Positions 1,026 through 26,053 of a stretch of 47,159 nucleotides of DNA are shown in pieces. Made by a program: the position numbers and the translations under genes. Positions within the stretch are counted from its first letter, which is position 1. Every line of letters starts with the position of its first letter. The DNA comes from a virus, in the IMG/VR virus record IMGVR_UViG_3300005298_000040, positions 1 to 47,159 of that record; one strand, given 5' to 3'. Under the pieces are notes generated by a model that did no database searches, was not told the DNA's origin, and saw nothing but the letters and a program-made list of their open reading frames with translations.

Positions 1026-1370
1026 TTAGTCATCATCATTGCACCTGCAAGTCTCACTCTCACCAATCTTCATTATGTCCAGAATTGCTTCGTATCTGCT
1101 TTTCATGTCATCATAAATTCGTTTAGCCTCTTCAATTTTGCCCTCCTTTATTTTTGCCGCTATGAGCCAACAATCGTATTCAAACCGAATAAACTTAAGC
1201 GGAAATACTATTACATACGCTCCATCTCTCTCATCATATTCAAAATAGAACTCGTCAAACAGACTTTTCAAAAAATTAACTTGCTCAGCAGTATAGCCTC
1301 TAAGTTTGCCGTAATCAGCTTTTCTCATTAAATCATATATTAATCTCATATCAGGCCTGGCTCTCCTCAT
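1026..1370 (-). CDS. Hypothetical early protein
   Basis: ORF track gives 1026-1418. Start at ATG 1370 (MRRARPD), just after the upstream stop, is more likely. No family recognised. Confidence 0.7.
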   Translation of the reverse strand: MRRARPDMRLIYDLMRKADYGKLRGYTAEQVNFLKSLFDEFYFEYDERDGAYVIVFPLKFIRFEYDCWLIAAKIKEGKIEEAKRIYDDMKSRYEAILDIMKIGESETCRCNDDD

Positions 1371-1372
1371 AT

Positions 1373-1759
1373 TTATCGCCCCTTGTAAATCTCGACCTCG
1401 TGTTTTCTCGGTATGCATCTATAAAACCAGACATCAGCTCTTCCATCTTTATACAGTCTTATTGACCCATTCAAACGTTCTGTTACTGCCTCACGCTCTC
1501 CCTCATCAATGTCGGTATATTCGTACTGTTCCATTATCTCCATTATTTTCTTATTAAAGACATTTCTCGTAATTTTTCGGTCTATATGCGTCAGCAAATC
1601 AACAAGCGTTTCTAAAAGGTCGCTGTTTATTTCATCATTCTCTACTAAATATTCAATCACTTTTTCCAGTGCTTCGCTTATTTCTTTCAGTTTAAATATC
1701 CTCTCTTCCCTCTCTCTTCTTACCTTCTCAACTAATTCTTCCCAAAAAATATTTTTCAT
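1373..1759 (-). CDS. Hypothetical early protein (helical, charged)
   Basis: 128-aa ORF with GGAGGTGAGG RBS directly after promoter copy 2. Confidence 0.8.
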   Translation of the reverse strand: MKNIFWEELVEKVRREREERIFKLKEISEALEKVIEYLVENDEINSDLLETLVDLLTHIDRKITRNVFNKKIMEIMEQYEYTDIDEGEREAVTERLNGSIRLYKDGRADVWFYRCIPRKHEVEIYKGR

Positions 1760-1766
1760 CCTTCCT

Positions 1767-1836
1767 CACCTCCCTCTTTTTTGTTGTTTTTGTTATTGAA
1801 TAGTATGCAATAAGAGGTATATATAGTTTTCGAAAT
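1767..1836 (-). promoter_or_regulatory. Early-type promoter copy 2 (CGAAAACTATATATAC + TTATTGCATA box)
   Basis: Shares 31 bp with copy 1 and 20 bp (1817-1836) with 14684-14703. Confidence 0.82.
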
Positions 1837-2085
1837 TTGCCAGCTAACACATACTCCAGACTCCGTTAGTATTACTGCCCATCATCATCATACAGTTGCT
1901 CTGCTGAATATCACTAACTGCTACTACTACTCTTTACTCTTCAATCTCATCATCATCAATATTTTCCCTTTCTATCCCTACCTGTATATCACACTATATG
2001 CTGCATGTGACTGTTTATTATTTTGCCCCGGGTTTTTGTTTTCTGCCCGCTCGTTGCTTTTCTTGATTTTGTTATTTCTGCCGCA

Positions 2086-2153
2086 TGCACACAAAACTGC
2101 AATTTATGCACACAAAAAACACATTATTGCACATACCAATATAAAAATGCACA
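2086..2153. repeat. Four phased TGCACA hexamers (2086, 2107, 2128, 2148; spacing 21, 21, 20 bp)
   Basis: Read directly; lies in the longest non-coding stretch (about 1840-2154). Confidence 0.8.
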
Positions 2154-2154
2154 T

Positions 2155-2430
2155 CTACATTATAACTTCTTCCCAGCCCCTATCACTAAACAAAATTTTT
2201 CTAAAATACTTATCTGCATCGACTTCTTCAATCTTTTCCATCTTCATTTTCTCTTCCTTGCTCTTTCGCCCTCTTTTATCTTTATGTTTCTCCTCAAACT
2301 CATTAATTCCAAGCATAAAGCAATCTTCAATCACTCTGCTCTTCGGCATCTTATATTTCTCTGACAGCCTCTCAAGTTCCTTCATCGCCACAGGTGATAG
2401 CGTTATTGTCAAACTTATTCTGCTCGTCAT
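2155..2430 (-). CDS. Ribbon-helix-helix (CopG-like) DNA-binding protein
   Basis: ISLTITLS beta strand followed by helices (ELERLSEKYKMPKSRVIE). Confidence 0.7.
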   Translation of the reverse strand: MTSRISLTITLSPVAMKELERLSEKYKMPKSRVIEDCFMLGINEFEEKHKDKRGRKSKEEKMKMEKIEEVDADKYFRKILFSDRGWEEVIM

Positions 2431-3821
2431 CCTAACAGCCCTCTCGATATCAGATTTTCATACTCACTGAACCTATCAAACACGTGCACATCTTCACGTC
2501 TGAATTTGCTCAATACATAACATGCAATCGCAAGAGCATCAACTAAATCATCATGCATTCTTGCATCTTTCAGTATTCTCACTCTGCCATCTGAAGTATA
2601 TGTTATCTTAAATGACTTGAACTGATACTTCAACTTTTCATCTTTAATCAGCCTAATCTTTTTATTCTCAATCAAGCTCTTAAGCAAAAAGTAAATCTCA
2701 TTTCTTTCCCTCCCTGCCGCAGTTACTTCATACACGTTTGGCAATTTCTCCTTCAAAACATCAAATACCCCGGCTCCCATTCCAATACTATCAACTCCAA
2801 GTGCTTTAACATTCCACCTCAATGTCATTTCCCTTGCCCATCCTATTATGTCGCTCAGCGGCCTCTTGCCCCTCGTATACATTGCAACCATCTCTATCGT
2901 AGCATCATCAAAACTCACTCCCTTAGGTATTCTCACAACAACATAAGCACTTTCATCACTTCCAAACCTTGCAATATCGAGCCCTGCATAATACTCATAG
3001 CCCTCTTCAGCTTCTTTCATTCTACTCAGCACCATAACATCCTCGATATCTTTGTCATCAACAAGAACGTCCTCACTGCCCATAAACTCGGCCTCATACC
3101 AAATTCTGAACTCTTTTTCTGGTATTCTACTCCTTATGAACTCAATTTCTTCTTCCCTTATTCTGCCCTCCTTAACAGCTTCCCTCCATGTTACTTTAAC
3201 TTTCTCAAACTCCGGGTCAACCCATGCATTCTTAAAATAGTTATCTGTATGCGGTGTTCCCAGCAATATAACCACTGGCTCGTGTTTATGCTTTGATGCA
3301 ATCATTCTCAATATTCTTGTTCTAAACACCTCGTCAGGTATGCTGCCGGCCTCATCAACTATTAACACCGTTGCTCCAAATCCTAACAGCCCCTCTGGAT
3401 TACCTGCACTCAAACAAATTACTTTACTGCCATTCACAAAATTTATCTCGTCTCTTCTGAACCCCCTTTTCTTATCAATTAAGCTATACAAAATGTCATT
3501 CGACACTATATGATTTCTTATTCTGCTAAACAAAATCTGCGATTGTCTAAATGTCGGAGCTATAACTACAATCTCCTCACCATCATACATTATTGCAAGC
3601 AAAATTGCCAGTATTGCTGTTGCTTCGCTTTTTCCAGCTCTCGTGCATGCTAAAAATATGTATTTCTTTTTCTCTCTTTTCAACACCTTCTTTATGAATT
3701 CCTCCTGATAGCTTGTCAATTTTATCGGCTCTCCTGTCTGTGCTATAAACATCCTCTTTACAAACTCGCCGAGATTCTCAATTATACGTTTATTTATACT
3801 ATCACTCGCCATCGATTTCAT
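2427..3821 (-). CDS. terL: Terminase large subunit
   Basis: LTSYQ adenine motif, Walker A TRAGKS, Walker B LIVDEAG, GTP coupling motif, nuclease GLDIA and HDDLVDALA. Confidence 0.95.
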   Translation of the reverse strand: MKSMASDSINKRIIENLGEFVKRMFIAQTGEPIKLTSYQEEFIKKVLKREKKKYIFLACTRAGKSEATAILAILLAIMYDGEEIVVIAPTFRQSQILFSRIRNHIVSNDILYSLIDKKRGFRRDEINFVNGSKVICLSAGNPEGLLGFGATVLIVDEAGSIPDEVFRTRILRMIASKHKHEPVVILLGTPHTDNYFKNAWVDPEFEKVKVTWREAVKEGRIREEEIEFIRSRIPEKEFRIWYEAEFMGSEDVLVDDKDIEDVMVLSRMKEAEEGYEYYAGLDIARFGSDESAYVVVRIPKGVSFDDATIEMVAMYTRGKRPLSDIIGWAREMTLRWNVKALGVDSIGMGAGVFDVLKEKLPNVYEVTAAGRERNEIYFLLKSLIENKKIRLIKDEKLKYQFKSFKITYTSDGRVRILKDARMHDDLVDALAIACYVLSKFRREDVHVFDRFSEYENLISRGLLG

Positions 3822-4266
3822 CTAAAATCTCCCCAAGCAATATCTCTTTTCTTGCACTAATATCATACTCAAGCTTTTTCTCTTTTTCTTCTCTAATTTT
3901 CTCAAGTATTAGCAAAGCAGTTTCTATATTTTTTCTCGTCTCAGGTATTGCCATTCCTATCTGCTTCTCTAATTTCCTCAATAGCTTCAGTCTCTCTATC
4001 TGCTCCTTATATAATCTGAGCTTCTCATGATAAGTATCGACCTCTATTATTTTCTCGTCATCCTCGTCTGTCATAATTATAGTTCCGACCTCTTTTTCAA
4101 ACCAGTATTTAACTGCTTTGTCAGTAACTTCAATACCATATTTATCTTTAAGTTCTTCAGCTATTTCATTCCACATCTTTCCTTCACTCAACCTCGTCGC
4201 TATCAGCACCTTTATTTCCTCTTTCCGTTCATCTGATATTTCATCCAATTCAGTTCTCGTTGTCAT
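3802..4266 (-). CDS. Probable terminase small subunit (N-terminal HTH, coiled coil)
   Basis: Directly upstream of terL; HTH-like WNEIAEELKDKYGIEVTDKAVKYW. Likely start ATG 4266 (track 4305). Confidence 0.6.
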   Translation of the reverse strand: MTTRTELDEISDERKEEIKVLIATRLSEGKMWNEIAEELKDKYGIEVTDKAVKYWFEKEVGTIIMTDEDDEKIIEVDTYHEKLRLYKEQIERLKLLRKLEKQIGMAIPETRKNIETALLILEKIREEKEKKLEYDISARKEILLGEILDEIDGE

Positions 4267-4308
4267 TTTACAACACCTCATCACATCAGTTTGACTTTGA
4301 TACAATCC

Positions 4309-5286
4309 TCATACTCCAACCTCCTTGAATCTGTGCCTCTGCTCATAAACCTCAACCGCCAACATAAAATCTTCGCTATTGTATGTTTCAAGATATTTTT
4401 CTACAACATAATCAAGCATCTCTTTAACACCTCTAAGCTTCCTTTCTCCCAATATATTCATCCAATCGTTAGTCGCAATCCTATATGGGTCTGAGCTTTG
4501 TTTTCTCACATCTTCAGTTATAACATACATCGGCTCTCTGCCTACCTCATTGTATACCATTTTAACCAAATCCTCAAGTCTAATCCCATATCCAACACCG
4601 ATATCATACACGTGTCTATCCACTCTCTCTACTTCTTCATGTCTAAGTAAATCTATAACAACTTCAGCAAAATCCCTCGCATATAACAAATCCATTTTCT
4701 TATCAGGACTACCAAATATTCTAAATGTCCTTCCTGCAACTGCATAACTTATCAATGTTGGTATTATTTTTCTTGTTGGCAATATCCTCTGTCTCTCGCA
4801 AAATACATGATGCACATAACTGCTCACTATAAACACATTCCACTTCTTTGCATACTCCTTTGCAATTCTCAATGCCATTTCTTTTGTTACGCTATATCCA
4901 TCTGTAAATCCATACCCGGCAAACTCTATGCTTGTATGATATACCCTCGCATCTTTCATCTTAGCCAATTCATACACATTTCTTGCTCCCGTCAAATTAT
5001 ACATCACTGCAGTATCAAATAAAGAGCTCAGTTCCTCGCTTCCAAGCCAACCTCCAAAATCGTAAATTTCAACTACATCATATTCGCTTGCAATCGCATT
5101 TATCTGTCTTATATCTGCACTACTGCCATGCCTATATATCAGTTTATCCCTTTGTATATATCTCGCCCACTCCCTTAGCGGTGGCCTCGGGTCTAACACT
5201 ATAACTCTATTTTTTCTTTCTAACAGCACATCCACAACATGACTTCCTATCTGCCCACATCCTCCTACAACTAATATGTCGCCCAT
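4309..5286 (-). CDS. NAD-dependent epimerase/dehydratase (extended SDR)
   Basis: Rossmann GGCGQIGSH, catalytic YSVTK (YxxxK), DLLYARDFA, YDIGVG. Confidence 0.9.
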   Translation of the reverse strand: MGDILVVGGCGQIGSHVVDVLLERKNRVIVLDPRPPLREWARYIQRDKLIYRHGSSADIRQINAIASEYDVVEIYDFGGWLGSEELSSLFDTAVMYNLTGARNVYELAKMKDARVYHTSIEFAGYGFTDGYSVTKEMALRIAKEYAKKWNVFIVSSYVHHVFCERQRILPTRKIIPTLISYAVAGRTFRIFGSPDKKMDLLYARDFAEVVIDLLRHEEVERVDRHVYDIGVGYGIRLEDLVKMVYNEVGREPMYVITEDVRKQSSDPYRIATNDWMNILGERKLRGVKEMLDYVVEKYLETYNSEDFMLAVEVYEQRHRFKEVGV

Positions 5287-5287
5287 A

Positions 5288-6430
5288 CTACCACCACTTC
5301 TTATATATCTTCAACACAGCATCGGCCACTCTTTTCGCATCCTTTATGTCCATCCCAACATGCATAGGCAAACATACAACGTGTTTTGTAATCCAGTTTG
5401 CATTATCAATATTTCGTTCCACCTTATTTTTCAATCTCTCCCATACCTCTTCTTCATTTACTGCATATCTAACACTCGAATACCAAGCCTCTATATTATG
5501 CCCGCACATCAGCTCTTCTTCAAATATGTGTCTAAGAATTTTTCTGCTAATCACTGGACATTCATAATAATTGTAAGTCCAATTCGAATTCTCTCTGCTT
5601 GGGTCATACACATACAAATCCTCTTCATTAATCAATTTCTTATATGTATCAAACACTCTTTTTCTCTTTACAGTATCAGAATTGTAATATCTCAACTGAC
5701 TCAATGCAAAACCTGCATTAAATTCACTAAGCTTCCAGTTGTTTCCCACAACATGACACATTTTTCCAATCCTTCCTATATCAATAGCTATTCTGCACCA
5801 TTCATCAATTTCTTCGTCATCGGTCATTATTGCCCCTCCCTCTCCTGCTGCAACAATTTTAGTTGATGCAAAACTAAGTATGCCATCGCCACATAACTTC
5901 TGAGCACTTCCAAAACAATGTGCTACATCATTCAATATTCTAAACTCAATCCCCTTATCTGTCAGCTCATCTATAATCATCTTCTCATACTCTCTACTAT
6001 ACCACCCAAATAACCAAACTGGCATAACAACTGTCTTCTTAACTTCATTTTCTTTTATTGCTTTAATCAAATCGTCTACATCCATAATTATCAAATCCTT
6101 CCTGATATCTACTGGAATTATTCTCATTCCAAGTCTCTCTGGTATTATCCAATCGCTTATGAATCCAACTCCTTGAACACATACAGTATCAAACCCCAAA
6201 ATATCTCTATAATACTGCAATAAACATTCTATTGCACTTGTTCCACTACTCGTGGCTATACAGTATTTCTTCTCATGTATTGTTTTCACTACATCTTCTA
6301 ATTTTCTGCATAACTTCCCATTACTTATTACTCCCTCTTCAAATATTTCATCCAAATACTCATTGAATACTATTCTCATATCGTTATGCATGCTCACACG
6401 CCAAGCTTTTATTACCTTCACATACACCAC
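5288..6430 (-). CDS. DegT/DnrJ/EryC1/StrS PLP-dependent sugar aminotransferase
   Basis: ATSSGTSA, NDVAH, SFASTKIVAAGEGGAIMTDD (PLP lysine), GNNWKLSEFNA, CLPMH. Confidence 0.92.
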   Translation of the reverse strand: MVYVKVIKAWRVSMHNDMRIVFNEYLDEIFEEGVISNGKLCRKLEDVVKTIHEKKYCIATSSGTSAIECLLQYYRDILGFDTVCVQGVGFISDWIIPERLGMRIIPVDIRKDLIIMDVDDLIKAIKENEVKKTVVMPVWLFGWYSREYEKMIIDELTDKGIEFRILNDVAHCFGSAQKLCGDGILSFASTKIVAAGEGGAIMTDDEEIDEWCRIAIDIGRIGKMCHVVGNNWKLSEFNAGFALSQLRYYNSDTVKRKRVFDTYKKLINEEDLYVYDPSRENSNWTYNYYECPVISRKILRHIFEEELMCGHNIEAWYSSVRYAVNEEEVWERLKNKVERNIDNANWITKHVVCLPMHVGMDIKDAKRVADAVLKIYKKWW

Positions 6431-17175: not shown

Positions 17176-18156
17176 TCATACTCCGTATTTTTTCTTCATT
17201 TCACTTACTGATTTCTTTATCAACTTCACTGTCTTCATTATGTCCCTCATGCTTTTCTCATATTCTGCCTTAAGTTTTCCACATACTTTCTTTGCTGTTT
17301 CCTCATCATACCTTCTTCTCATTTCTCTCATGCACTCATCCCAGTTTTTGAATCCTGCAAAAGGCTTTCTTACATCAATCTCGCTCTCTTCATCGCCTCT
17401 CCTGTCTTCCTCTACATTATCAAATATCACACCCAAAACTGCAAACATCTCGTCAAACTTATCAAGCACATTCTTAACTTTCTTCTTCTCATCGTCGCTG
17501 AGCTCTCCATATCTCTTTCCGTATATCGATATTGCCACGCTGTCTCTAAATTTGTCTTTAACTGACTTGCAAATGTTGCATAATATAATGCTCTCCTTCT
17601 TCTCATAGAATTTATTTATATCTTCACCTGCTATATTGAACTCTTTTAGAATGTCAATTACATTAATTTCAGACTCTCCCTTAGCAAAGTAATTTATTTC
17701 CTCTATTATTGCATACTGATTTGCAGGTTTCTCAACTACACTAATCTCAGTAAGCTCAATGTCTTTCAAAATTGATATTTCCTTTTCAACTCCATTCTCT
17801 TTTTTCTTTAATATCTTTTGTTCTCCTGTGCCACCGATAGAAAATCCCTTTATTTTTCCGTTCTTTATCATCTCCCACACTGCATCGTCTATTTTGTATC
17901 CTCTATTTATCTTCGCCAAAATCTTTACTCCATACCTGCCTGTCTCTGGATGTTTATCAATCCACCAGTTAAGAACCTTTCCTACTTTCTTATTCGAATG
18001 TCCATACACCAAATCTCCGCCTCTGTCCATGAACTTTATCATCGCTTTCCTGAGCTCATCTACTGGCACTATGTCTCCTTGAGAGTCCTGTATCTCTACA
18101 CTACACCATCCTATTACAAGTCTTTCGTCCAAATCAGTAATTTCTATGTCATTCAT
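17176..18156 (-). CDS. Prohead maturation protease (HK97/XkdF-like)
   Basis: DSQGD, GHSNKKVG (His), IKGFSIGG (Ser), LTEISVVEKPAN. Confidence 0.88.
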   Translation of the reverse strand: MNDIEITDLDERLVIGWCSVEIQDSQGDIVPVDELRKAMIKFMDRGGDLVYGHSNKKVGKVLNWWIDKHPETGRYGVKILAKINRGYKIDDAVWEMIKNGKIKGFSIGGTGEQKILKKKENGVEKEISILKDIELTEISVVEKPANQYAIIEEINYFAKGESEINVIDILKEFNIAGEDINKFYEKKESIILCNICKSVKDKFRDSVAISIYGKRYGELSDDEKKKVKNVLDKFDEMFAVLGVIFDNVEEDRRGDEESEIDVRKPFAGFKNWDECMREMRRRYDEETAKKVCGKLKAEYEKSMRDIMKTVKLIKKSVSEMKKKYGV

Positions 18157-18194
18157 ATTATTATCTCCGCACCAACTTATATTTAAAGATTATC

Positions 18195-19427
18195 TCAACA
18201 ATCGTATCCATACTCTTTAAGCTTTTCTCTCCTCTCATTAAAATACTGAATGAACTCATAAGCTCTATGATATGTTTCAACTATATTGACTCCCTCGACT
18301 GCATCCACAGCATCCCTAATAGCATCATCTGCACTATCGCCAAGCCCTATTGCAGTAACTACAACATTATCCTCAACTGGCACCCACCAAATCCTGTCCT
18401 TCGCTTTAATTGCTCTTCTAACAGCTATCTTATCAAAGTTTTCTGCTTTTATTTCTTTCCATTTGATTTCATCAGTATAAACTGGCAATTGAACACTATA
18501 TCTGCATCTGAGCCTTATGTCCACATCATCACCCATTGCAACTCCAGTAACCACATCTGCATAATTATCAATCATCCTCGGATATGCATAGCTACAAACA
18601 TAAGGATATCTCGGTGTCGGGTCTGTAACATATACTTTATTTCCATCCCAGAATCCCTCAAATGCAATCATTCCTCTATATCCATTCTCTCTAAGCCAAT
18701 CTTCAATTTTCATAAGCACATCAAACCACGGACTTTCCCCTATTTTGTTAGCAACAGTATAATTTCCGCACCACTTCATTTCAACAGTATCGAAAACTAT
18801 GTCCAAAAACTCCTCTCCATTAAAAAATACATCTACTCCAATTTCCACAAATCTATCATGCTCCAATGGCTCTTCAAGTATAAATGTCATTGCATCTCCA
18901 AACATATACATCCCACTCATCATCAGCTTAATTTCTGCTTCATCTGGGCTATCTGTAGCAAACGTTTCGCAACTTCCTCTGAATCTATTTATCTTCACAT
19001 ACCTCTTTCCCAATCTCTTTATTCCATCAACAACTCCTGAAATTCCTTTTACAACCTCATATGCAGGTGTATCTATTCCCAATCTCTCCATCACTTTCTT
19101 GAAATATACTCTATCAAACTCAATTTTCTCAGTAAGCTCATCGCTACCAAACACATAATATCCATTCTCCCTTAACCAATCTGCCAGTGCTCCGAATCCA
19201 CTATCAGTAAACACTATATAATCACAGCCTTCTTCAAGTGCTTCACCAAAATCCCACACCTTCTTTATGTTTTCAAATCCGTATCCATCAATTTCACTCT
19301 CCAAGTCTGGAAATGCTCTTGCATGCACTACCGAATAATATGTCTCATACTTTTTTGCTATTCCAAATGCATGGTCTAACCCAATATTTGTGCTTATTAC
19401 CAACACCTCATCACTCATTCCCACCAC
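18195..19427 (-). CDS. ATP-grasp ligase, PurD-like architecture
   Basis: LADWLRENGYYVFGS...EFDRVYFKKVMERLGIDTP, YVKIN, ILEEP, TDPTPR. PurD substrate motifs (GSGGREHA, TGGMG) are absent. Confidence 0.8.
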   Translation of the reverse strand: MVGMSDEVLVISTNIGLDHAFGIAKKYETYYSVVHARAFPDLESEIDGYGFENIKKVWDFGEALEEGCDYIVFTDSGFGALADWLRENGYYVFGSDELTEKIEFDRVYFKKVMERLGIDTPAYEVVKGISGVVDGIKRLGKRYVKINRFRGSCETFATDSPDEAEIKLMMSGMYMFGDAMTFILEEPLEHDRFVEIGVDVFFNGEEFLDIVFDTVEMKWCGNYTVANKIGESPWFDVLMKIEDWLRENGYRGMIAFEGFWDGNKVYVTDPTPRYPYVCSYAYPRMIDNYADVVTGVAMGDDVDIRLRCRYSVQLPVYTDEIKWKEIKAENFDKIAVRRAIKAKDRIWWVPVEDNVVVTAIGLGDSADDAIRDAVDAVEGVNIVETYHRAYEFIQYFNERREKLKEYGYDC

Positions 19428-20011
19428 CTCAAATCTTTCTCATACGCTCTTATAATTATACACCTACAACCCGGATGCACGTTATATCTGTCATACCCTC
19501 CATTATATTGCTTCAGTATTTGCCTCAACTCGTCTATCGTTACTCCTCCGGCTGTCAAATTTTCTACCTCTTTACACTTCTTACAAACATTACTATCTCC
19601 CTCACTTTTCCATTTGAATTTTCTGACTCTCGTTTTTTCTAAATATGCAATTTCTCTTGCCTTATTTGCAATATTTGCAAGTTCTGTCATTCCTATCAGC
19701 TCAGCCTTACTCCTGTCCAATCCTGCCTCCCTAACAAGTCTTCCTACAACATGCTCTTTGTTTATCCACCTCTGTTGCAACACAGTCTCCAGCAGTATCT
19801 CATTAACTCTTTTCGACTGCTCATCAGTCAAGCCACTATATTTCTTCCAAAAACTCATGTCTATCAGGGCTTTTATCCTCTCTTTTCCATAATTCTTTAT
19901 TGCTTTGTGCAATCCCCACTTTAATATTTCTAAATCATCGTTGTCAGCAATTATTGTAAACCACTCATACGGAATTTTCTTCAACTCAAAAATTTTCTCT
20001 TTCATACTCAC
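19415..20011 (-). CDS. Minor head protein (Mu gpF / SPP1 gp7-like)
   Basis: Follows portal; AELIGMTELA, VCKKC, C-terminal HPGCRCII. Confidence 0.82.
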   Translation of the reverse strand: MSMKEKIFELKKIPYEWFTIIADNDDLEILKWGLHKAIKNYGKERIKALIDMSFWKKYSGLTDEQSKRVNEILLETVLQQRWINKEHVVGRLVREAGLDRSKAELIGMTELANIANKAREIAYLEKTRVRKFKWKSEGDSNVCKKCKEVENLTAGGVTIDELRQILKQYNGGYDRYNVHPGCRCIIIRAYEKDLRWWE

Positions 20012-21786
20012 CTCCTCGGCATTTCTGGCTCTCCTTCAAATCTTTGCATTCTTCTGCTCGGCCTCGACCTGCTCGGCTCTCCCTCTAACTTTTGTTCAGG
20101 CTCCGGTATCAATTTGCCTCCCTCGCCTACCACTCCTACAACCTCATCCATTCCTTCTGCATGCTCCTCACTACTTTCCAATTCTCCAACTCTTTCAGTA
20201 TTGTCTCCTTCGGTCTTCTTTTCCAATAATGATATAAATTCTTTCAACAGTGTATCTGGCTCAATAGTTAGACCATATTTATCTGCAATCTCTTTCAAAA
20301 ACTTCTTCAGCTTTTCTTCTGGCTCTAACTCTGCATACTTGAAATCAATTCCATCCTCTCCTTCAACCATTATTGGCTCATAACCAAGTCCTTTCATTCC
20401 GCTTGCAATCTGTATCCTCATTAATATTCTCTGCAACTGTGATGCCAAATCCTTTTCCTCATGTGGCTTAAGCTGTATAACCCAATCATTTATTCCAAGC
20501 TGTCTACACAACCAAGGCAGCACCTTATTATTGTATATATTCTGCTCAACTTCAATTGCTCTATTTGTTACCGTTATTTGCAAGCCCTCATTTGCCAATC
20601 CTGTTCCTGTGCTAACGTCAGCATGAAACAGTGGCATTACTCCCCAAACTGCACCTATACTTCTTCTCAACTCATTTCTATACTCTATGAAATTAATATC
20701 ATCGCTCTTAAATGTAAAATCTATCCACTCAACAACTCTTTTGCTTGAATCAGTCCCTTCAACTATCAGCGGATATATTGCATGCGGATTTATCCTCGCT
20801 TTCTCCATTAACCACTCCCATGCTTTTGCAACTGAATTCATGTTCCCTCTAACAACCAAAAGCCCTTTTGGCGGCCTCTGCAAATGATAGCTCATCATTA
20901 TAAACCAATCCTGCTTCATCAATATCATCGCCTTCATCCATACAGTTATTACAGGTGGAAATCCGTATCCTATTCCCTGTGTAAACTTCTTGAAATGCAA
21001 CACCTCGCCATTTGTATAGTATAACGTCCTCCCTCCTTTGAACATCTTGAAATATGCTGGATACATTATCTTTCCGCACTTAGGACATCTAACTCCTCTT
21101 TCAACTTCTTCTTGAGTATATTCATAATGCACATCCCTATGCTCCAAACAAAATACTACTACCCTGCCATCATCTGTTACTCCCATTCTGCCATCCCTGC
21201 TCATTACAAAATACAACGTTAACGGGCTTCCTCTAATAACTTCAATCGGCTCAGCACCAATAACTCTTCCGTCCTCATCAAAATAATATTTCTTAGTTAC
21301 AACAAGAAATGCATTATCAACGATATTCAAATCATAATCACATGACATCAACACATCAATTAAACTCTCATCATTCAAATTCGCATCCTTGACAAATTTT
21401 TCAAGTTTCAATTTCTCTCTATTGTCAGGTCTTCTGAAGCTCTTTGAGCCACAAACTTCACACTCTTTTACCTCCTCATTCTCATACTCTGCACCGCATG
21501 CATTACATTTAACTGCAAATTTTCTTTTTATGATTATTCCGTTCCTAAACGTTTCCCAAACTATTGACCTGACAATCGTTCTTATTACATCACTGTAGAA
21601 AAACATGTCATAAGCAAACCTGAAATGCAACGGCAGCATCGGCACTTTTGCCACATCATGCACTCCTACCTGCACGAAACTGTCTACTGGCCTCGTTAAT
21701 AGTGGACTAACACCACTTCTATCCTCAGATTTCTTTGCCAATCCTATAGTATTACGTATCGCATCTACAAACTTCATTGTTATCAC
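20008..21786 (-). CDS. Portal protein with Zn-ribbon insertions
   Basis: VLHFKKF...YGFPP, PPKGLLVV, IGAVWGVMP, VEQNIYNNKVLPWL portal-like segments; position before MuF and protease. Confidence 0.85.
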   Translation of the reverse strand: MITMKFVDAIRNTIGLAKKSEDRSGVSPLLTRPVDSFVQVGVHDVAKVPMLPLHFRFAYDMFFYSDVIRTIVRSIVWETFRNGIIIKRKFAVKCNACGAEYENEEVKECEVCGSKSFRRPDNREKLKLEKFVKDANLNDESLIDVLMSCDYDLNIVDNAFLVVTKKYYFDEDGRVIGAEPIEVIRGSPLTLYFVMSRDGRMGVTDDGRVVVFCLEHRDVHYEYTQEEVERGVRCPKCGKIMYPAYFKMFKGGRTLYYTNGEVLHFKKFTQGIGYGFPPVITVWMKAMILMKQDWFIMMSYHLQRPPKGLLVVRGNMNSVAKAWEWLMEKARINPHAIYPLIVEGTDSSKRVVEWIDFTFKSDDINFIEYRNELRRSIGAVWGVMPLFHADVSTGTGLANEGLQITVTNRAIEVEQNIYNNKVLPWLCRQLGINDWVIQLKPHEEKDLASQLQRILMRIQIASGMKGLGYEPIMVEGEDGIDFKYAELEPEEKLKKFLKEIADKYGLTIEPDTLLKEFISLLEKKTEGDNTERVGELESSEEHAEGMDEVVGVVGEGGKLIPEPEQKLEGEPSRSRPSRRMQRFEGEPEMPRR

Positions 21787-21796
21787 CTACACACAC

Positions 21797-22129
21797 TTAA
21801 CTATATGCTTTATTGTTACTGCATTTTTCATTTTCGTCTGGCATCATACTTAGAAATGCAACTATATTCCTCATATCATTCAAGCACTCAATTGCTATGC
21901 TACTCAAAATGCTTCCAATAAGTGCACTTGCCTCAATATCAAGCAAACACTCTGCAATTAACTCGTATTCTTCTTCATCATCATTCAGTTTTTTCACCTT
22001 TAGAACCTCAAATTTCACTCCTCCATAGCTAAATTTTTTGTTTTTTATGCTCGGACTAATCTTTACTAATCTCAATAAAACGTCTCCTGCTTCTGTTACA
22101 TAAATAATTTCGTCTCCCAAACTTATCAC
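21797..22129 (-). CDS. Hypothetical protein
   Basis: 110-aa ORF in an operon chain, with RBS. Confidence 0.65.
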   Translation of the reverse strand: MISLGDEIIYVTEAGDVLLRLVKISPSIKNKKFSYGGVKFEVLKVKKLNDDEEEYELIAECLLDIEASALIGSILSSIAIECLNDMRNIVAFLSMMPDENEKCSNNKAYS

Positions 22130-22929
22130 CTCTTCTCAATCAAATCAATCATATATATCCACGTCACTGGTCTATCATCATCAGCTCCAAAGAATATAAA
22201 CTTATTCACCGGCTGCAACCCAAGCCTCTCTGAATATGAGTCCCCGCTAAGCATCGTTCCATTGCACATAAGCATTATATCATTATGCTGCAACATCAAA
22301 ACAGTATGAAAATGCCCTATACACATTACATCAAAATCCTCAAATATGCCACCGCTCTTCCACCTCATCGCCTTGTGTATCATTCCATAAACAGGTATAT
22401 TGCTATATGCCCTTATAGCATCTCCATGCGTCAATAAATATGCCCAATCCTTTACATATGCCATGCAATACCAGTCATTTTTTGCTTTATGCATGTTCAC
22501 CTCAACATTATTTGTATCTGCAAATCTATCCTCAAGCCTCTTATATACAATCTTGTCCCAATTGCTCCTCTCACTACCTGCAGTTCTTCCATGATTGCCT
22601 CGAACACACCAAACTTTTATCTGTCTAAAATTCCGCTCAAGAGATTTTATAAAATTATACAGACTACTGACAGCAATATCCACTGATTCATCTACATCCT
22701 TCTCAACATTATATCCATGTCCTCTGTATATTTCCTCGCCGTCGACAATATCCCCAAGCATAAAAATATTTAGTTCCCTCAGCTTGTGGCTTCTGTTTAC
22801 TATTCTCTTCACTTTCAGTAAATTATGTCTGCATACTTCTATTCTCCTCAGATACTCATTTGTATCATAACTGTTTGTCTTTCTTCCAATATGCAAATCA
22901 CTCATCAATAATATACAACTCTCAGTCAT
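22126..22929 (-). CDS. Calcineurin-like metallophosphoesterase
   Basis: SDLHIG, LGDIVDG, RGNHG, THGD, GHFH. Confidence 0.92.
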   Translation of the reverse strand: MTESCILLMSDLHIGRKTNSYDTNEYLRRIEVCRHNLLKVKRIVNRSHKLRELNIFMLGDIVDGEEIYRGHGYNVEKDVDESVDIAVSSLYNFIKSLERNFRQIKVWCVRGNHGRTAGSERSNWDKIVYKRLEDRFADTNNVEVNMHKAKNDWYCMAYVKDWAYLLTHGDAIRAYSNIPVYGMIHKAMRWKSGGIFEDFDVMCIGHFHTVLMLQHNDIMLMCNGTMLSGDSYSERLGLQPVNKFIFFGADDDRPVTWIYMIDLIEKR

Positions 22930-23210
22930 GCAAACCTAATTATTAAATTTGCCACTATCGCAAACAACAACATCAACGCCGTGCCAAGAATCTTAAAGTA
23001 TGTATTATGCCTCTCTATGACTATTTTAATACAATCAAGCTCATTATTCATCTCACTAATAATCTCACATAAAGAAGTTATTTTTTGTGCCATATCATCT
23101 ATTTTCTGCTCAAGTTTACTCGTTTGCACTATCAATTTCTTTATGTCATCATGATTCGCCTCAAGCATTTTAACTCTCTCATCCAGCCTCGCAATACTAT
23201 CATCGACCAA
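22926..23210 (-). CDS. Coiled-coil protein with C-terminal TM helix (XhlA/holin-like)
   Basis: IARLDERVKMLE coiled coil, then ILGTALMLLFAIVANLII. Confidence 0.6.
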   Translation of the reverse strand: MVDDSIARLDERVKMLEANHDDIKKLIVQTSKLEQKIDDMAQKITSLCEIISEMNNELDCIKIVIERHNTYFKILGTALMLLFAIVANLIIRFA

Positions 23211-25662
23211 ATCGTGTCACCCCCTCTGACTTCATCTTAGCAAACCATACCACTCTATCAATAATATTCTTAACTTCATTGCATGCTCCAGCCTTCTTTT
23301 CTTTCTTCTTTACTTTATATCGTCCACTTTCTACTGCCTCACGTATTTTATCCGCCTTTCTTATTTCCTCCCCGATTTGCCTCAGCTCATTTATTTCATC
23401 ATCACTTAACACATCTTTCAATTCGATTAATTCTCCTCTCTTTGCACTCTCTATGAACTTATTATAGTCTCTCGATGCTATGTCAATTAAGTTGCAAAAT
23501 GCTTTTGCTACTAAAGCCTCTCTTCTTCCATTAATGAACATTCCATCAAGTATTCTGAACTCAACTCTTCCTTGGTCTATAATTCTGCTAACATTTACTG
23601 CCCTATACTTCTCGTATAAATAATCATCGTCCACTGCATCCCAATTAAGCTCATCCAGCATCATTGCATAATAACTATCTTCTCTCGATTTCGATATTGC
23701 TCCAATGTCAAACAAATCTCTTATTACACTCTCACCATGCAGCATTAATGCTTTTCTGAAATTAGTTTTTTCATCATCTGTCTTTAAGACTCGAACAATA
23801 TCTCTAACGTCAACACTAATATGTGCACCAGTCTCATGAGTATTAATCATGTCCCCGTCTCTCTTACACATCTCAAGAAACTCTTGAAACCACTTATATC
23901 CCTTCTTGCCTCTCATAAAACATAAAACCAACTCACCGGAAGTTAAATTTGTCAAACTCCCATCACACACAAACTTATTGCTCTCAATTATCTTATAAAT
24001 TCTGTCTTCGCCATATTTTTCAATAAGTTTTTCCCAATCTATAATATTATACTCCAGCTCAAAACTAAAATATCTACCTTCCTCACTCCTTGCCTCTTCA
24101 AGTCCCTCACCTCTACGATTCATTGACCTAAAATTTATTAGTATCTCTTGTATTTTCATTAACTTATCATCATCAAGCAACATTTTCTCAAGTTCATCTC
24201 CTGATGTTGTCTGTTTAGCTTCTCTAATTTGATATATAATTCGATTTAATCTTGTTAACGAATTTCTATTGTGCAAAATTTTTTCATGCTCTCTACTGAT
24301 ATTTTTAATCTCTTTAATAATAGTATCTTTGCCAAATTGATTCTTTATTGCAAAACCGTATTTCTTCGCAAATTCTTTTAAATTATCCGCCTCTATGACA
24401 CTATCTTCAATTTCAAGCTCAATTGGGCTATTTGCATCTATAATAATATCTTCCTTCGGCACTTTTCTCGCCATCCAAGATATTTCCCCCATTATTCTAT
24501 ACAAATCTTCAAAGAACCAAATCACTTCATAAAAATCTGTCATCGAATATCTGACACTCTTATTGGCAAATTTCTTAAGATTTTCAATCAACTCATTAAC
24601 AGATTTATTAATTTCATCCGCAAAATCTTTATCATCCCTTGCTATAGCTTCAATTGCCGGCTCAAATATTCTTTTTAAATGCTTGCAAAATCTATCTTCA
24701 AACATAGTATTTGCCAATTCCTTCGTCACGCCATAATAAAATCTTTCACGCAATCTTTCGTCAATTCTGTATGAGTCAAAAACAATATCTATTGCCAACT
24801 TAATATCATCCAATAACGCTCTCACATACTCAAAGTTTGCATATGGTGTAATATTCTTGAGTCTAAACAAAGAATCTTCCAAAAGACTCTCAAACGCATG
24901 TCTTCTTGATAAATCCAGCCTTACATATACTTCTTTAAACGTTTCAGCATACTCTCTTGTATATCCACGCTCCTCCCATCTTCTTTCCAACCTTTCGAGT
25001 TCACGCCTCACCTCATCATCTTCTTCTTGTATTCTTTCCTGCATCCTTTCTTCTTCTCGTCTTCTTCTGTATTCTTCTGCTCTTTCTCTCAGTTCCTCAG
25101 CTCTTGCTCTCAATCTCTGCTCTCTATCTTCATCAGTATCACGACCCAGCTCTCTAACGTCAATGTATAGTCCACCTCTTGGACCTCTATACACTCTAAC
25201 TCCCTGTGGCAGTCTTCCTATATCCTCCTCTCTAATGTATCTTCTAAATCTTGCAGGAACTTGCTTCCTTATGCCTCTGAATATCTTTTTTACTACTGCC
25301 TCAACCTCTTCCTTGAGTATAAACCCCGTAGTCAGCCCATCATCACACAAAACTCTTCTACTCAGCTCAATCGGTATTTCTTTATCGTTTGCCACAACAT
25401 ACAAAACATACTCTTTTCCACCGCATATCACTTTCCTCAATTTCGTAATGTGTCTTATTCTGTCTTCATATTTTTTCTCAAACTCATCATCAGCCAATAT
25501 GTAAACTTCTTCGCTCCAATCTGGTTTCGTTCCACGTATTCTGTTCACGTAATTCAGTATGCCTTCAGTGTTTTTCACGTGCTCTATAAACTCGTCTAAT
25601 TTTGTAAAATAATACTGCTCAGTAAACAAATCCACAATCTCACACGGCGGATATATTCTCAT
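23200..25662 (-). CDS. Large multidomain protein with C-terminal amidoligase (COOH-NH2 ligase, glutamine-synthetase/GCS fold) domain
   Basis: Ordered motifs FSFELE, CDGSL, GELV, HETGAHISVD, KYRAVN, RVEFRILDG. N-terminal part has GPRGG and an Arg/Glu-rich coiled coil. Likely start ATG 25662 (track 25680). Confidence 0.75.
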   Translation of the reverse strand: MRIYPPCEIVDLFTEQYYFTKLDEFIEHVKNTEGILNYVNRIRGTKPDWSEEVYILADDEFEKKYEDRIRHITKLRKVICGGKEYVLYVVANDKEIPIELSRRVLCDDGLTTGFILKEEVEAVVKKIFRGIRKQVPARFRRYIREEDIGRLPQGVRVYRGPRGGLYIDVRELGRDTDEDREQRLRARAEELRERAEEYRRRREEERMQERIQEEDDEVRRELERLERRWEERGYTREYAETFKEVYVRLDLSRRHAFESLLEDSLFRLKNITPYANFEYVRALLDDIKLAIDIVFDSYRIDERLRERFYYGVTKELANTMFEDRFCKHLKRIFEPAIEAIARDDKDFADEINKSVNELIENLKKFANKSVRYSMTDFYEVIWFFEDLYRIMGEISWMARKVPKEDIIIDANSPIELEIEDSVIEADNLKEFAKKYGFAIKNQFGKDTIIKEIKNISREHEKILHNRNSLTRLNRIIYQIREAKQTTSGDELEKMLLDDDKLMKIQEILINFRSMNRRGEGLEEARSEEGRYFSFELEYNIIDWEKLIEKYGEDRIYKIIESNKFVCDGSLTNLTSGELVLCFMRGKKGYKWFQEFLEMCKRDGDMINTHETGAHISVDVRDIVRVLKTDDEKTNFRKALMLHGESVIRDLFDIGAISKSREDSYYAMMLDELNWDAVDDDYLYEKYRAVNVSRIIDQGRVEFRILDGMFINGRREALVAKAFCNLIDIASRDYNKFIESAKRGELIELKDVLSDDEINELRQIGEEIRKADKIREAVESGRYKVKKKEKKAGACNEVKNIIDRVVWFAKMKSEGVTRFGR

Positions 25663-25778
25663 ATTCTCCACCATACCCAATACACCATCACCATAATTCT
25701 ATAAATATCTACTACCGTCTCACAAAACATGTTCCACGCCATATACTGAATTCCAAACGGTATTGCAATCCCTATCAT
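25659..25778 (-). CDS. 39-aa hydrophobic peptide MIGIAIPFGIQYMAWNMFCETVVDIYRIMVMVYWVWWRI (not in ORF track)
   Basis: Translated by hand; ATGA overlaps with both neighbours fill the gap exactly. Confidence 0.65.
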   Translation of the reverse strand: MIGIAIPFGIQYMAWNMFCETVVDIYRIMVMVYWVWWRI

Positions 25779-26053
25779 CTTCTTATCACTCTAATTATTG
25801 TCTTCACAATATTCTCCGTTATTGCAATTATGCCAGCATATGCTACAAATTGCTCTTCAACCGCTTGCTCAGTAACTGGAACTCCAAATGCCTGCAACAA
25901 TATTCCAATTATTACACCCCAAATCAGTGTCGTTATGAACTTCGCAACATCAAAACTCTGCGGGCTGTTTGGATTCAGGTGCTTTTTGACATACATCGAT
26001 AAGCTATATACTACAGCACTCAATACTGCAATACCCAAACTACCCAATTCCAT
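25775..26053 (-). CDS. Holin-like membrane protein
   Basis: 92 aa, 2-3 hydrophobic segments, basic C-terminus; own TATA (TTTATATT) upstream. Confidence 0.65.
   Translation of the reverse strand: MELGSLGIAVLSAVVYSLSMYVKKHLNPNSPQSFDVAKFITTLIWGVIIGILLQAFGVPVTEQAVEEQFVAYAGIIAITENIVKTIIRVIRR

Follow-up and report, generated by a model that had tools for sequence, protein, structure and literature searches.

A predicted amide-bond ligase in a candidate modular head-cargo protein of an archaeal tailed virus

Background

Effector proteins delivered by the virion are well studied in bacteriophages, as in the cases of T4 Alt, the N4 vRNAP and the MuF toxins; to our knowledge, they have hardly been studied in archaeal viruses. 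In T4, targeting to the capsid relies on a short N-terminal sequence that is cut by the head protease. In this article we describe an 820-aa protein, here called P0001, encoded in IMG/VR record IMGVR_UViG_3300005298_000040, a virus known solely from metagenomes. The window analyzed is the entire record, a linear sequence of 47,159 bp with a completeness of about 81%, and the loci and contigs compared with it carry L-numbers (L010, L095, L126 etc.) as labels. We put at roughly one half the probability that P0001, whose source is an archaeal tailed virus, is head cargo of modular build with an amide-bond ligase as its payload.

The predicted enzymatic part of P0001 is closest to the Amidoligase_2 family (PF12224; PHROG 2443), whose members are typically stand-alone proteins of 250–400 aa, whereas the ligase of P0001 forms the C-terminus of a much longer polypeptide. 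Known phage amidoligases are located in non-structural clusters with GAT-II, RimK and GGCT genes (PMC11318856). A preliminary description of the window, made from the letters alone, had likewise stated that phage amidoligases usually sit in small metabolic clusters, and so it is in LUZ24, where the amidoligase lies beside genes for GAT-II, GGCT and a RimK-type ATP-grasp protein. The P0001 gene is instead part of a head operon, where a weak GARS_A-like signal, located five genes further downstream, is all that resembles the ATP-grasp partner; neither a GGACT nor a GATase_6 match was obtained in the 47-kb record, where the classical GAT-II/GGCT partners were not found.

Polyvalent proteins and effectors fused to MuF or portal domains (Iyer et al. 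2017, PMC5512222; MuF toxins, PMC5576092) resemble P0001, which likewise joins an enzyme to non-enzymatic parts and is encoded among portal, MuF and protease genes. The element that P0001 shares is a GPRGG module of ~40 aa, not a MuF or portal domain, although relatives of its virus fuse the same module directly to portal and MuF-like domains. In its main text, the survey of polyvalent proteins (PMC5512222) mentions RNA ligases as the only ligases, with no amidoligase, reports few polyvalent proteins in archaea, and presents T4 Alt as the classic packaged ADP-ribosyltransferase (ART). The logic proposed for P0001 would be that of T4 Alt, i.e., a head-loaded enzyme delivered with the DNA, and sister viruses have R-S-ExE ARTs behind the module; the enzyme class differs. 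Finally, the module shares a Y-R-G-P-R-G-G-x-Y core with PBCV_basic_adap (PF08789), but P0001 is without the second half of that domain (G-x-K-x-Y) and has an upstream Y-I...E-E...P-x-G-V element instead. Among the carriers of PF08789 are the PBCV-1 kinases A278L and A282L, which are packaged at about 400–530 copies per virion and are DNA-associated (PMC3281028). What is new here is a predicted amidoligase as the proposed payload of the module, in an archaeal virus.

Results and discussion

The protein and its ligase domain

The P0001 gene is a single open frame on the minus strand that extends from TTG 25680 or ATG 25662 to the stop codon at 23200–23202. The ATG, which gives 820 aa, is favoured because a GGTGGAG sequence stands just before it, and the only homologue (P0002, see below) begins at the same Met; the 820-aa protein listed in the preliminary description is a real minus-strand open reading frame (ORF) by its frame, its translation and this homologue.

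The C-terminal domain of P0001 is in all likelihood a divergent Amidoligase_2 ligase of the glutamine synthetase (GS) fold, because PHROG, Atlas, BLASTP and hhalign comparisons agree on the same family and register. The PHROG 2443 profile, "amidoligase", matches residues 556–717 with E 2.5e-5 and 24.7 bits. For comparison, LUZ24 gp18, which is annotated as an amidoligase, reaches 27.6 bits over that same segment of the profile. In the ESM-Atlas, 30 of the 30 nearest feature-neighbour clusters carry PF12224 and are mostly viral (top score 0.95). BLASTP against a canonical member from L010, which itself has 240 bits for PF12224, gives 40 bits, E 2e-8 and 26% identity over 195 aa, and a comparison by hhalign with a non-redundant set of 41 viral members of the family has a probability of 80% and E 1.4e-5 over 145 columns.

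The same register is seen in individual residues. In a MAFFT alignment of 44 rows that include 42 Amidoligase_2 proteins, the motifs of P0001 sit in the conserved columns of the family and follow the family's order (ExE, D-S, E, G-H, Y..N, EFR), as had been noticed from the letters: FELE (E535/E537), CDGS (D567/S569), GELV (E577), GAHIS (G612/H614), KYRAVN (Y686/N690) and VEFR (E701/R703). Four of these residues (H614, Y686, E701 and R703) are invariant in 44 of 44 rows. The motif residues include what we take, by analogy with glutamine synthetase, to be the metal ligands and the catalytic arginine, and on that analogy the predicted metal-binding residues of the domain are retained.

Homologues of P0001 were sought by shared words over 5.8 billion clusters and by full phmmer over 1.84 billion representatives, shorter proteins included. 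The sole homologue in the protein collections is P0002, which is 97% identical; searches with the whole protein and with the domain found nothing in the phage collection, nothing in GTDB genomes and one contig in IMG/VR, and sequence and profile searches of the PDB returned nothing useful. As far as these collections reach, the predicted amidoligase payload is known from two near-identical contigs only. The two proteins differ by a 12-aa indel and several substitutions at the start of the linker (residues 176–235), and their genes differ in 19 codons, 9 of them synonymous and 10 non-synonymous, with zero amino-acid changes in the ligase domain. Because only 19 codons differ, the ratio of non-synonymous to synonymous substitution rates between the copies is uninformative and the unchanged domain is a weak point.

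The GPRGG module in related viruses

The motif VYRGPRGG occupies residues 157–164 of P0001, with the YRGPRGGLY core at 158–166, and is the only GPRGG in the window. It is followed, as the preliminary description had it, by an Arg/Glu-rich helix (about residues 179–232) and a helical region, both visible in the sequence and in the predicted secondary structure. That helix is the sole stretch near a predicted local distance difference test (pLDDT) score of 70 in the AlphaFold2 (AF2) model of the whole protein, which was built from two sequences and is unusable at large (pLDDT 42.8). The N-terminal 175 aa and the middle region gave no lead in Pfam, PHROG or the Atlas.

A search of IMG/VR for the pattern YRGPRGGxY returned 33 loci, which is about the chance expectation by a rough estimate. 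Only in-frame matches with conserved flanks were used, and a search with the module alignment then found the relatives; matches in L094, L101, L103, L108, L120 and L123 were discarded as out-of-frame or Arg-rich junk. Several pattern matches are bona fide PF08789 domains (34–52 bits). No usable match was obtained in cultured phages, and our literature search found no paper on a GPRGG module in tailed viruses. The group as a whole is described by Y-[IV]...[DE][DE]...P-x-G-[VIT]-x-[VI]-[YH]-x-G-P-x-G-G-x-[YF]-[IV]-D-x-R over ~40 aa, a pattern that P0001 fits. The module was found in L095, L126, L130, L136, L122/L107 and L132–L135, and that of P0001 is 44–69% identical to the modules of L126 and L095 and 32–35% identical to those of L130 and L107.

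The partners of the module are the C-terminus of the portal (L126, L132–L135, L122/L107), ARTs (L126, L136, L130) and RelA/SpoT enzymes (L130, L136), and in every lineage with available context (P0001, L126, L130, L136, L095, L122) the module genes lie inside the portal/MuF/protease/terminase cluster. The closest comparison is L126, which is 50% identical to the window in the portal, 50% in the major capsid protein, 39% in MuF and 36% in the protease. Its portal ORF of 1,070 aa runs on into a module and an HExxH domain, and this extension is 48% identical over 91 aa to residues 121–210 of P0001, of which residues 99–133 also resemble the segment that precedes the module in the portal fusion. 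The next gene of L126 (P0125, 623 aa) encodes an N-terminal region, a module 68% identical over 44 aa to that of P0001, a charged linker and an R-S-ExE ART, and is followed by MuF, a 411-aa gene and the protease. In L136 (identity to the window 43% for the nuclease, 52% for the portal and 50% for MuF), a 427-aa protein composed of a module and an ART, homologous to the ART protein of L126, is encoded between MuF and the protease; it is 29% identical to residues 120–312 of P0001, a weak alignment that extends into the region behind the module. L130, which is acidic and haloarchaeal-like, has after its portal and MuF genes a module joined to a DRAT-type ART (40.5 bits) and another joined to RelA_SpoT (43.5 bits), whereas L122 combines portal, two modules and a MuF-like domain in a single ORF of 1,236 aa.

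In viruses with portal fusions the module is predicted to be within the virion, because the portal is a virion component by definition, and ARTs and RelA/SpoT enzymes, its other partners, are effectors of a kind typically directed at the host. The preliminary description had proposed a head-targeting carrier and a survey of GPRGG proteins for swappable C-terminal enzymes. The survey did turn up such enzymes, namely the ARTs and RelA/SpoT domains behind the module in L126, L130 and L136. The carrier idea gains comparative support from a module shared with portal fusions and with enzymes of head clusters, but not in the form of a MuF or portal domain, neither of which is present in the P0001 polypeptide (portal and MuF are separate genes), nor through a score for PF08789.

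We therefore arrive at the head-cargo interpretation on account of the portal fusions, the module-bearing enzymes in the head clusters of relatives, and the coupling of the P0001 gene to the portal/MuF/protease operon. P0001 would consist of an N-terminal region, a GPRGG adaptor of ~40 aa, a charged coiled-coil linker, a helical region and an ATP-dependent carboxylate-amine ligase. The adaptor would carry P0001 inside the procapsid or place it on the packaged DNA, the protein would exit the head together with the DNA, and in the ATP-containing host cytoplasm the ligase would form an amide bond between a carboxylate of a host target and an amine, either an amino acid or a polyamine. The glutamylation of host proteins that the preliminary description gave as an example is a guess. 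P0001 would occupy the slot that is held by Alt-like ARTs and RelA/SpoT enzymes in sister viruses.

Several observations on the module-bearing loci stand on their own. The portal genes of L126 (positions 1349–4561, plus strand), L132, L133, L134 and L135 encode ~1,070–1,090 aa with portal, module and a zincin-like HExxH domain; the C-terminal HExxH domain of these fusions is not recognized by Pfam. At L136:6531–7591 (plus), two modules lie in a 187-aa ORF that shares ~50 nt with a 182-aa RelA_SpoT ORF in another frame; a single module+RelA/SpoT gene may have been frameshifted or split here. The 683-aa module protein at L130:5983–8034 (plus) apparently has two tandem ARTs, with R-S-E sets at about residues 190–290 and 560–650. 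L095, whose module is nearly identical to that of P0001 and has the same upstream element, encodes at 3341–5689 (plus), between a metallophosphoesterase and the large terminase, a 782-aa protein made of two repeats of the module plus a ~300-aa domain; in each of these domains, a D-[LS]-H-x-x-N ... D-x-D-[FY]-A pattern brings kinase-like folds to mind. The head cluster of the cultured halovirus HVTV-1 likewise holds large candidate cargo proteins: gene 113 (L138, record positions 64229–67375; 1,048 aa), located after the portal, has three degenerate module-like repeats at its N-terminus and an HExxH motif, and gene 115, downstream of it, is annotated as zeta toxin. No virion proteomics for HVTV-1 was found in the literature searched.

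Gene order and the head operon

All genes of the window are on the minus strand, with a strong GC skew of about -0.45. By sequence comparison the source is an archaeal tailed virus, because the nearest cultured relatives of its portal are haloarchaeal and Methanomassiliicoccales viruses and its ribonucleotide reductase is 55–56% identical to the enzyme of Archaeoglobaceae genomes. The predicted operon continues from P0001 through the 94-aa gene, an Mre11-like exonuclease, a 110-aa gene, portal, MuF, a 410-aa gene, the prohead protease, a gene in the scaffold position and the capsid protein, with successive gaps of -11, -4, -4, +10, -4, -13 and +38 nt downstream from the P0001 gene. The P0001 gene is, on this arrangement, the predicted first gene of a head-morphogenesis operon, because a 112-bp gap precedes it, overlapping or abutting genes follow it, and the tail genes are located upstream. 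A scaffold or tape-measure role for P0001 was considered and rejected, as a 190-aa coiled-coil gene fills the scaffold position and the tail genes are upstream.

The same gene order bears on two other ways of placing the enzyme. P0001 might be a late enzyme that modifies the virus's own capsid, scaffold, portal or DNA-associated proteins, held by the module at the assembling head and perhaps acting with the ATP-grasp-like 410-aa gene. Its co-transcription with the portal, MuF, protease, scaffold-position and capsid genes would suit such a role, as would the weak GARS_A signal at 18798–19112 in the same operon, given that LUZ24-type clusters also pair an amidoligase with an ATP-grasp protein. 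While heads are being assembled, the cytoplasm supplies ATP, which the filled head probably lacks, and this favours it as well. We nevertheless consider self-modification fairly unlikely: the module of sister viruses carries ARTs and RelA/SpoT enzymes directed at the host, no modified head protein is known, and the 410-aa gene is kept in L126 and L133, although the stretches examined of these two yielded no amidoligase, so the ligase and the 410-aa gene are not an obligate pair.

The second placement makes P0001 an unpackaged cytoplasmic enzyme of metabolism or host takeover, acting as in LUZ24 on a small peptide or metabolite, with the module as a DNA or protein binder unrelated to the virion. 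This appears quite improbable, since the gene is coupled to the head operon, the module is found on portal proteins, and no GAT-II or GGCT gene is present in the record, even though known phage amidoligases keep precisely such non-structural company (GAT-II, RimK, GGCT; PMC11318856).

Evidence weighing against head cargo and against ligase activity

The head-cargo interpretation has to be set against a number of observations, which begin with the ligase itself. Pfam PF12224 (threshold 22 bits) has no match at E <= 10, whether the query is the entire protein, its C-terminal fragment or the window translated in six frames. The second His of the family's HxH is Ser616, giving HxS, and the near-invariant positions G533S, P581C and R685K also differ; the C-terminal helical module of the family is replaced, with the tail (residues 746–820) standing where canonical members have conserved AKYDFR...GDEFK helices. 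The domain that the preliminary description called intact is so in its motifs and predicted metal ligands and not in these positions or in its Pfam score. A model of the domain built with the family alignment has low confidence (pLDDT 56, predicted template modelling score 0.52) and comes from an alignment that already holds the family. Of the HHpred- and Foldseek-type comparisons that the description had proposed, the profile side came out in favour (hhalign, above), whereas Foldseek of the domain model has no match at E <= 0.001. An exhaustive structural aligner found 21 chains at Z >= 5, 17 of which are GS, GCL, YbdK, PafA or Dop; the GS-type chains have Z 5.1–7.0, with up to 227 residues aligned to the low-confidence model, and the top match is a KH tandem at Z 8.3, above all GS-type chains (Z <= 7.0). 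Because the model depends on the family alignment, the fold search indicates compatibility with the fold and is no independent proof.

Other points concern the module and the gene. The PF08789 HMM (hidden Markov model; threshold 20.4 bits) has no match to P0001 at E <= 10. The P0001 gene is four genes upstream of the portal, whereas the cargo genes of relatives come after portal or MuF. With the record about 81% complete, partner genes could fall outside it. The occurrence of the module on portal fusions argues for more than targeting; the roles considered are procapsid targeting, DNA tethering and protease handling, any of which the module could have.

On the chemistry of the domain, these observations leave room for two further explanations. 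One is that the amidoligase likeness is a chance set of short motifs in a C-terminal third of some other fold. We regard this as very improbable: comparisons of four kinds point to one family in one register, and every family-invariant column is matched. The lack of a Pfam match, the non-significant Foldseek search and an uninformative single-sequence AF2 model would be in keeping with it, as would the about 11 bits that HMMs from one Amidoligase_2 subfamily reach on P0001, although these HMMs are too narrow.

The other explanation is a pseudoenzyme, i.e., a structural internal head or ejection protein in which the fold is kept for binding only. The domain retains the arginine of EFR and every predicted metal ligand, LUZ24 gp18, an accepted member that barely passes PF12224 (21.6 to 25.7 bits), is about equally far from the profiles, and the domain is unchanged between the two copies (a weak point, as said), which together make a pseudoenzyme unlikely. 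It would account for the Ser at the second His, the three more near-invariant changes, the replaced C-terminal helices and the missed Pfam threshold, and non-enzymatic sequence, coiled-coil or helical, makes up over 500 of the 820 residues. Activity is uncertain because Ser616 and the positions of G533, P581 and R685 differ; ligase activity, as predicted from the retained residues, is in our judgement plausible and somewhat favoured.

Features of the locus

The coordinates of P0001 and its surroundings are collected in Table 1.

Table 1. Features of the P0001 gene, its protein regions and adjoining elements in the window
Feature	Position	Strand	Basis
P0001 gene, 820 aa + stop	23200..25662	minus	ORF list, translation
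N-terminal region, residues 1–133, beta-rich then helix (low-confidence AF2)	25264..25662	minus	without family match
GPRGG module, residues 134–175, pattern VP..FRRYI..ED....P.GVRVYRGPRGGLYIDVREL	25138..25263	minus	similarity to L126 modules
Arg/Glu-rich linker/coiled coil, residues 176–235	24958..25137	minus	predicted helix about 179–232
Helical middle region, residues 236–529	24076..24957	minus	no significant Pfam/PHROG match
Predicted divergent Amidoligase_2 / GS-fold COOH-NH2 ligase domain, residues 530–745	23428..24075	minus	PHROG, Atlas, BLASTP, hhalign, columns, fold search
C-terminal helical tail with Lys-rich patch, residues 746–820	23203..23427	minus	translation
GGTGGAG, Shine-Dalgarno-like, 3 nt ahead of ATG 25662	25666..25672	minus	sequence read
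TTTATA, archaeal TATA-box-like, putative promoter element inside the 112-bp upstream gap	25700..25705	minus	sequence read
94-aa coiled-coil protein with hydrophobic C-terminus; 11-nt overlap with P0001 gene end	22926..23210	minus	ORF list
Remaining overlapping operon: Mre11-like exonuclease, 110-aa gene, portal, MuF, 410-aa gene, prohead protease	17176..22929	minus	Pfam, PHROG

Some neighbouring genes have features of their own. The 94-aa protein has a weak XhlA-like (haemolysin/holin-associated) Pfam match below threshold and is an odd partner for opening a head operon. Just upstream of P0001, a predicted 92-aa membrane protein (25775–26053, minus) shares 34% identity with a counterpart in L128 and L129, which are unrelated contigs that also bear the module. 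The portal (20008–21786, minus) contains a zinc-ribbon-like insertion at about residues 85–119 (HypA/Zn_ribbon_15 matches). In the 410-aa gene (18195–19427, minus), which lies between MuF and the protease, the GARS_A (PurD ATP-grasp) signal is weak at 14.5 bits; the gene is kept at the same position in L126 and L133 with 28–31% identity and may be a conserved ATP-grasp-like head-cluster gene.

Conclusions

Beyond P0001, we tentatively suggest a general head-cargo system of archaeal tailed viruses, in which enzymes of exchangeable type (ADP-ribosyltransferase, RelA/SpoT nucleotidyltransferase, zincin-like peptidase and amide-bond ligase) would be loaded into the capsid by way of the GPRGG module and delivered with the genome. 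One short module found with at least four enzyme types in one gene neighbourhood provides a system for studying head-cargo choice, and if the module is a loading signal, it would be usable for finding more cargo proteins in metagenomes. If the head-cargo interpretation of P0001 is true, the protein would be the first injected viral effector that acts by ATP-dependent ligation of an amino acid or amine onto a host target, an amide-bond ligase would be a new chemistry in virus-to-host effector delivery, and the large uncharacterised phage Amidoligase_2 family would gain a context in which to search for its substrates.

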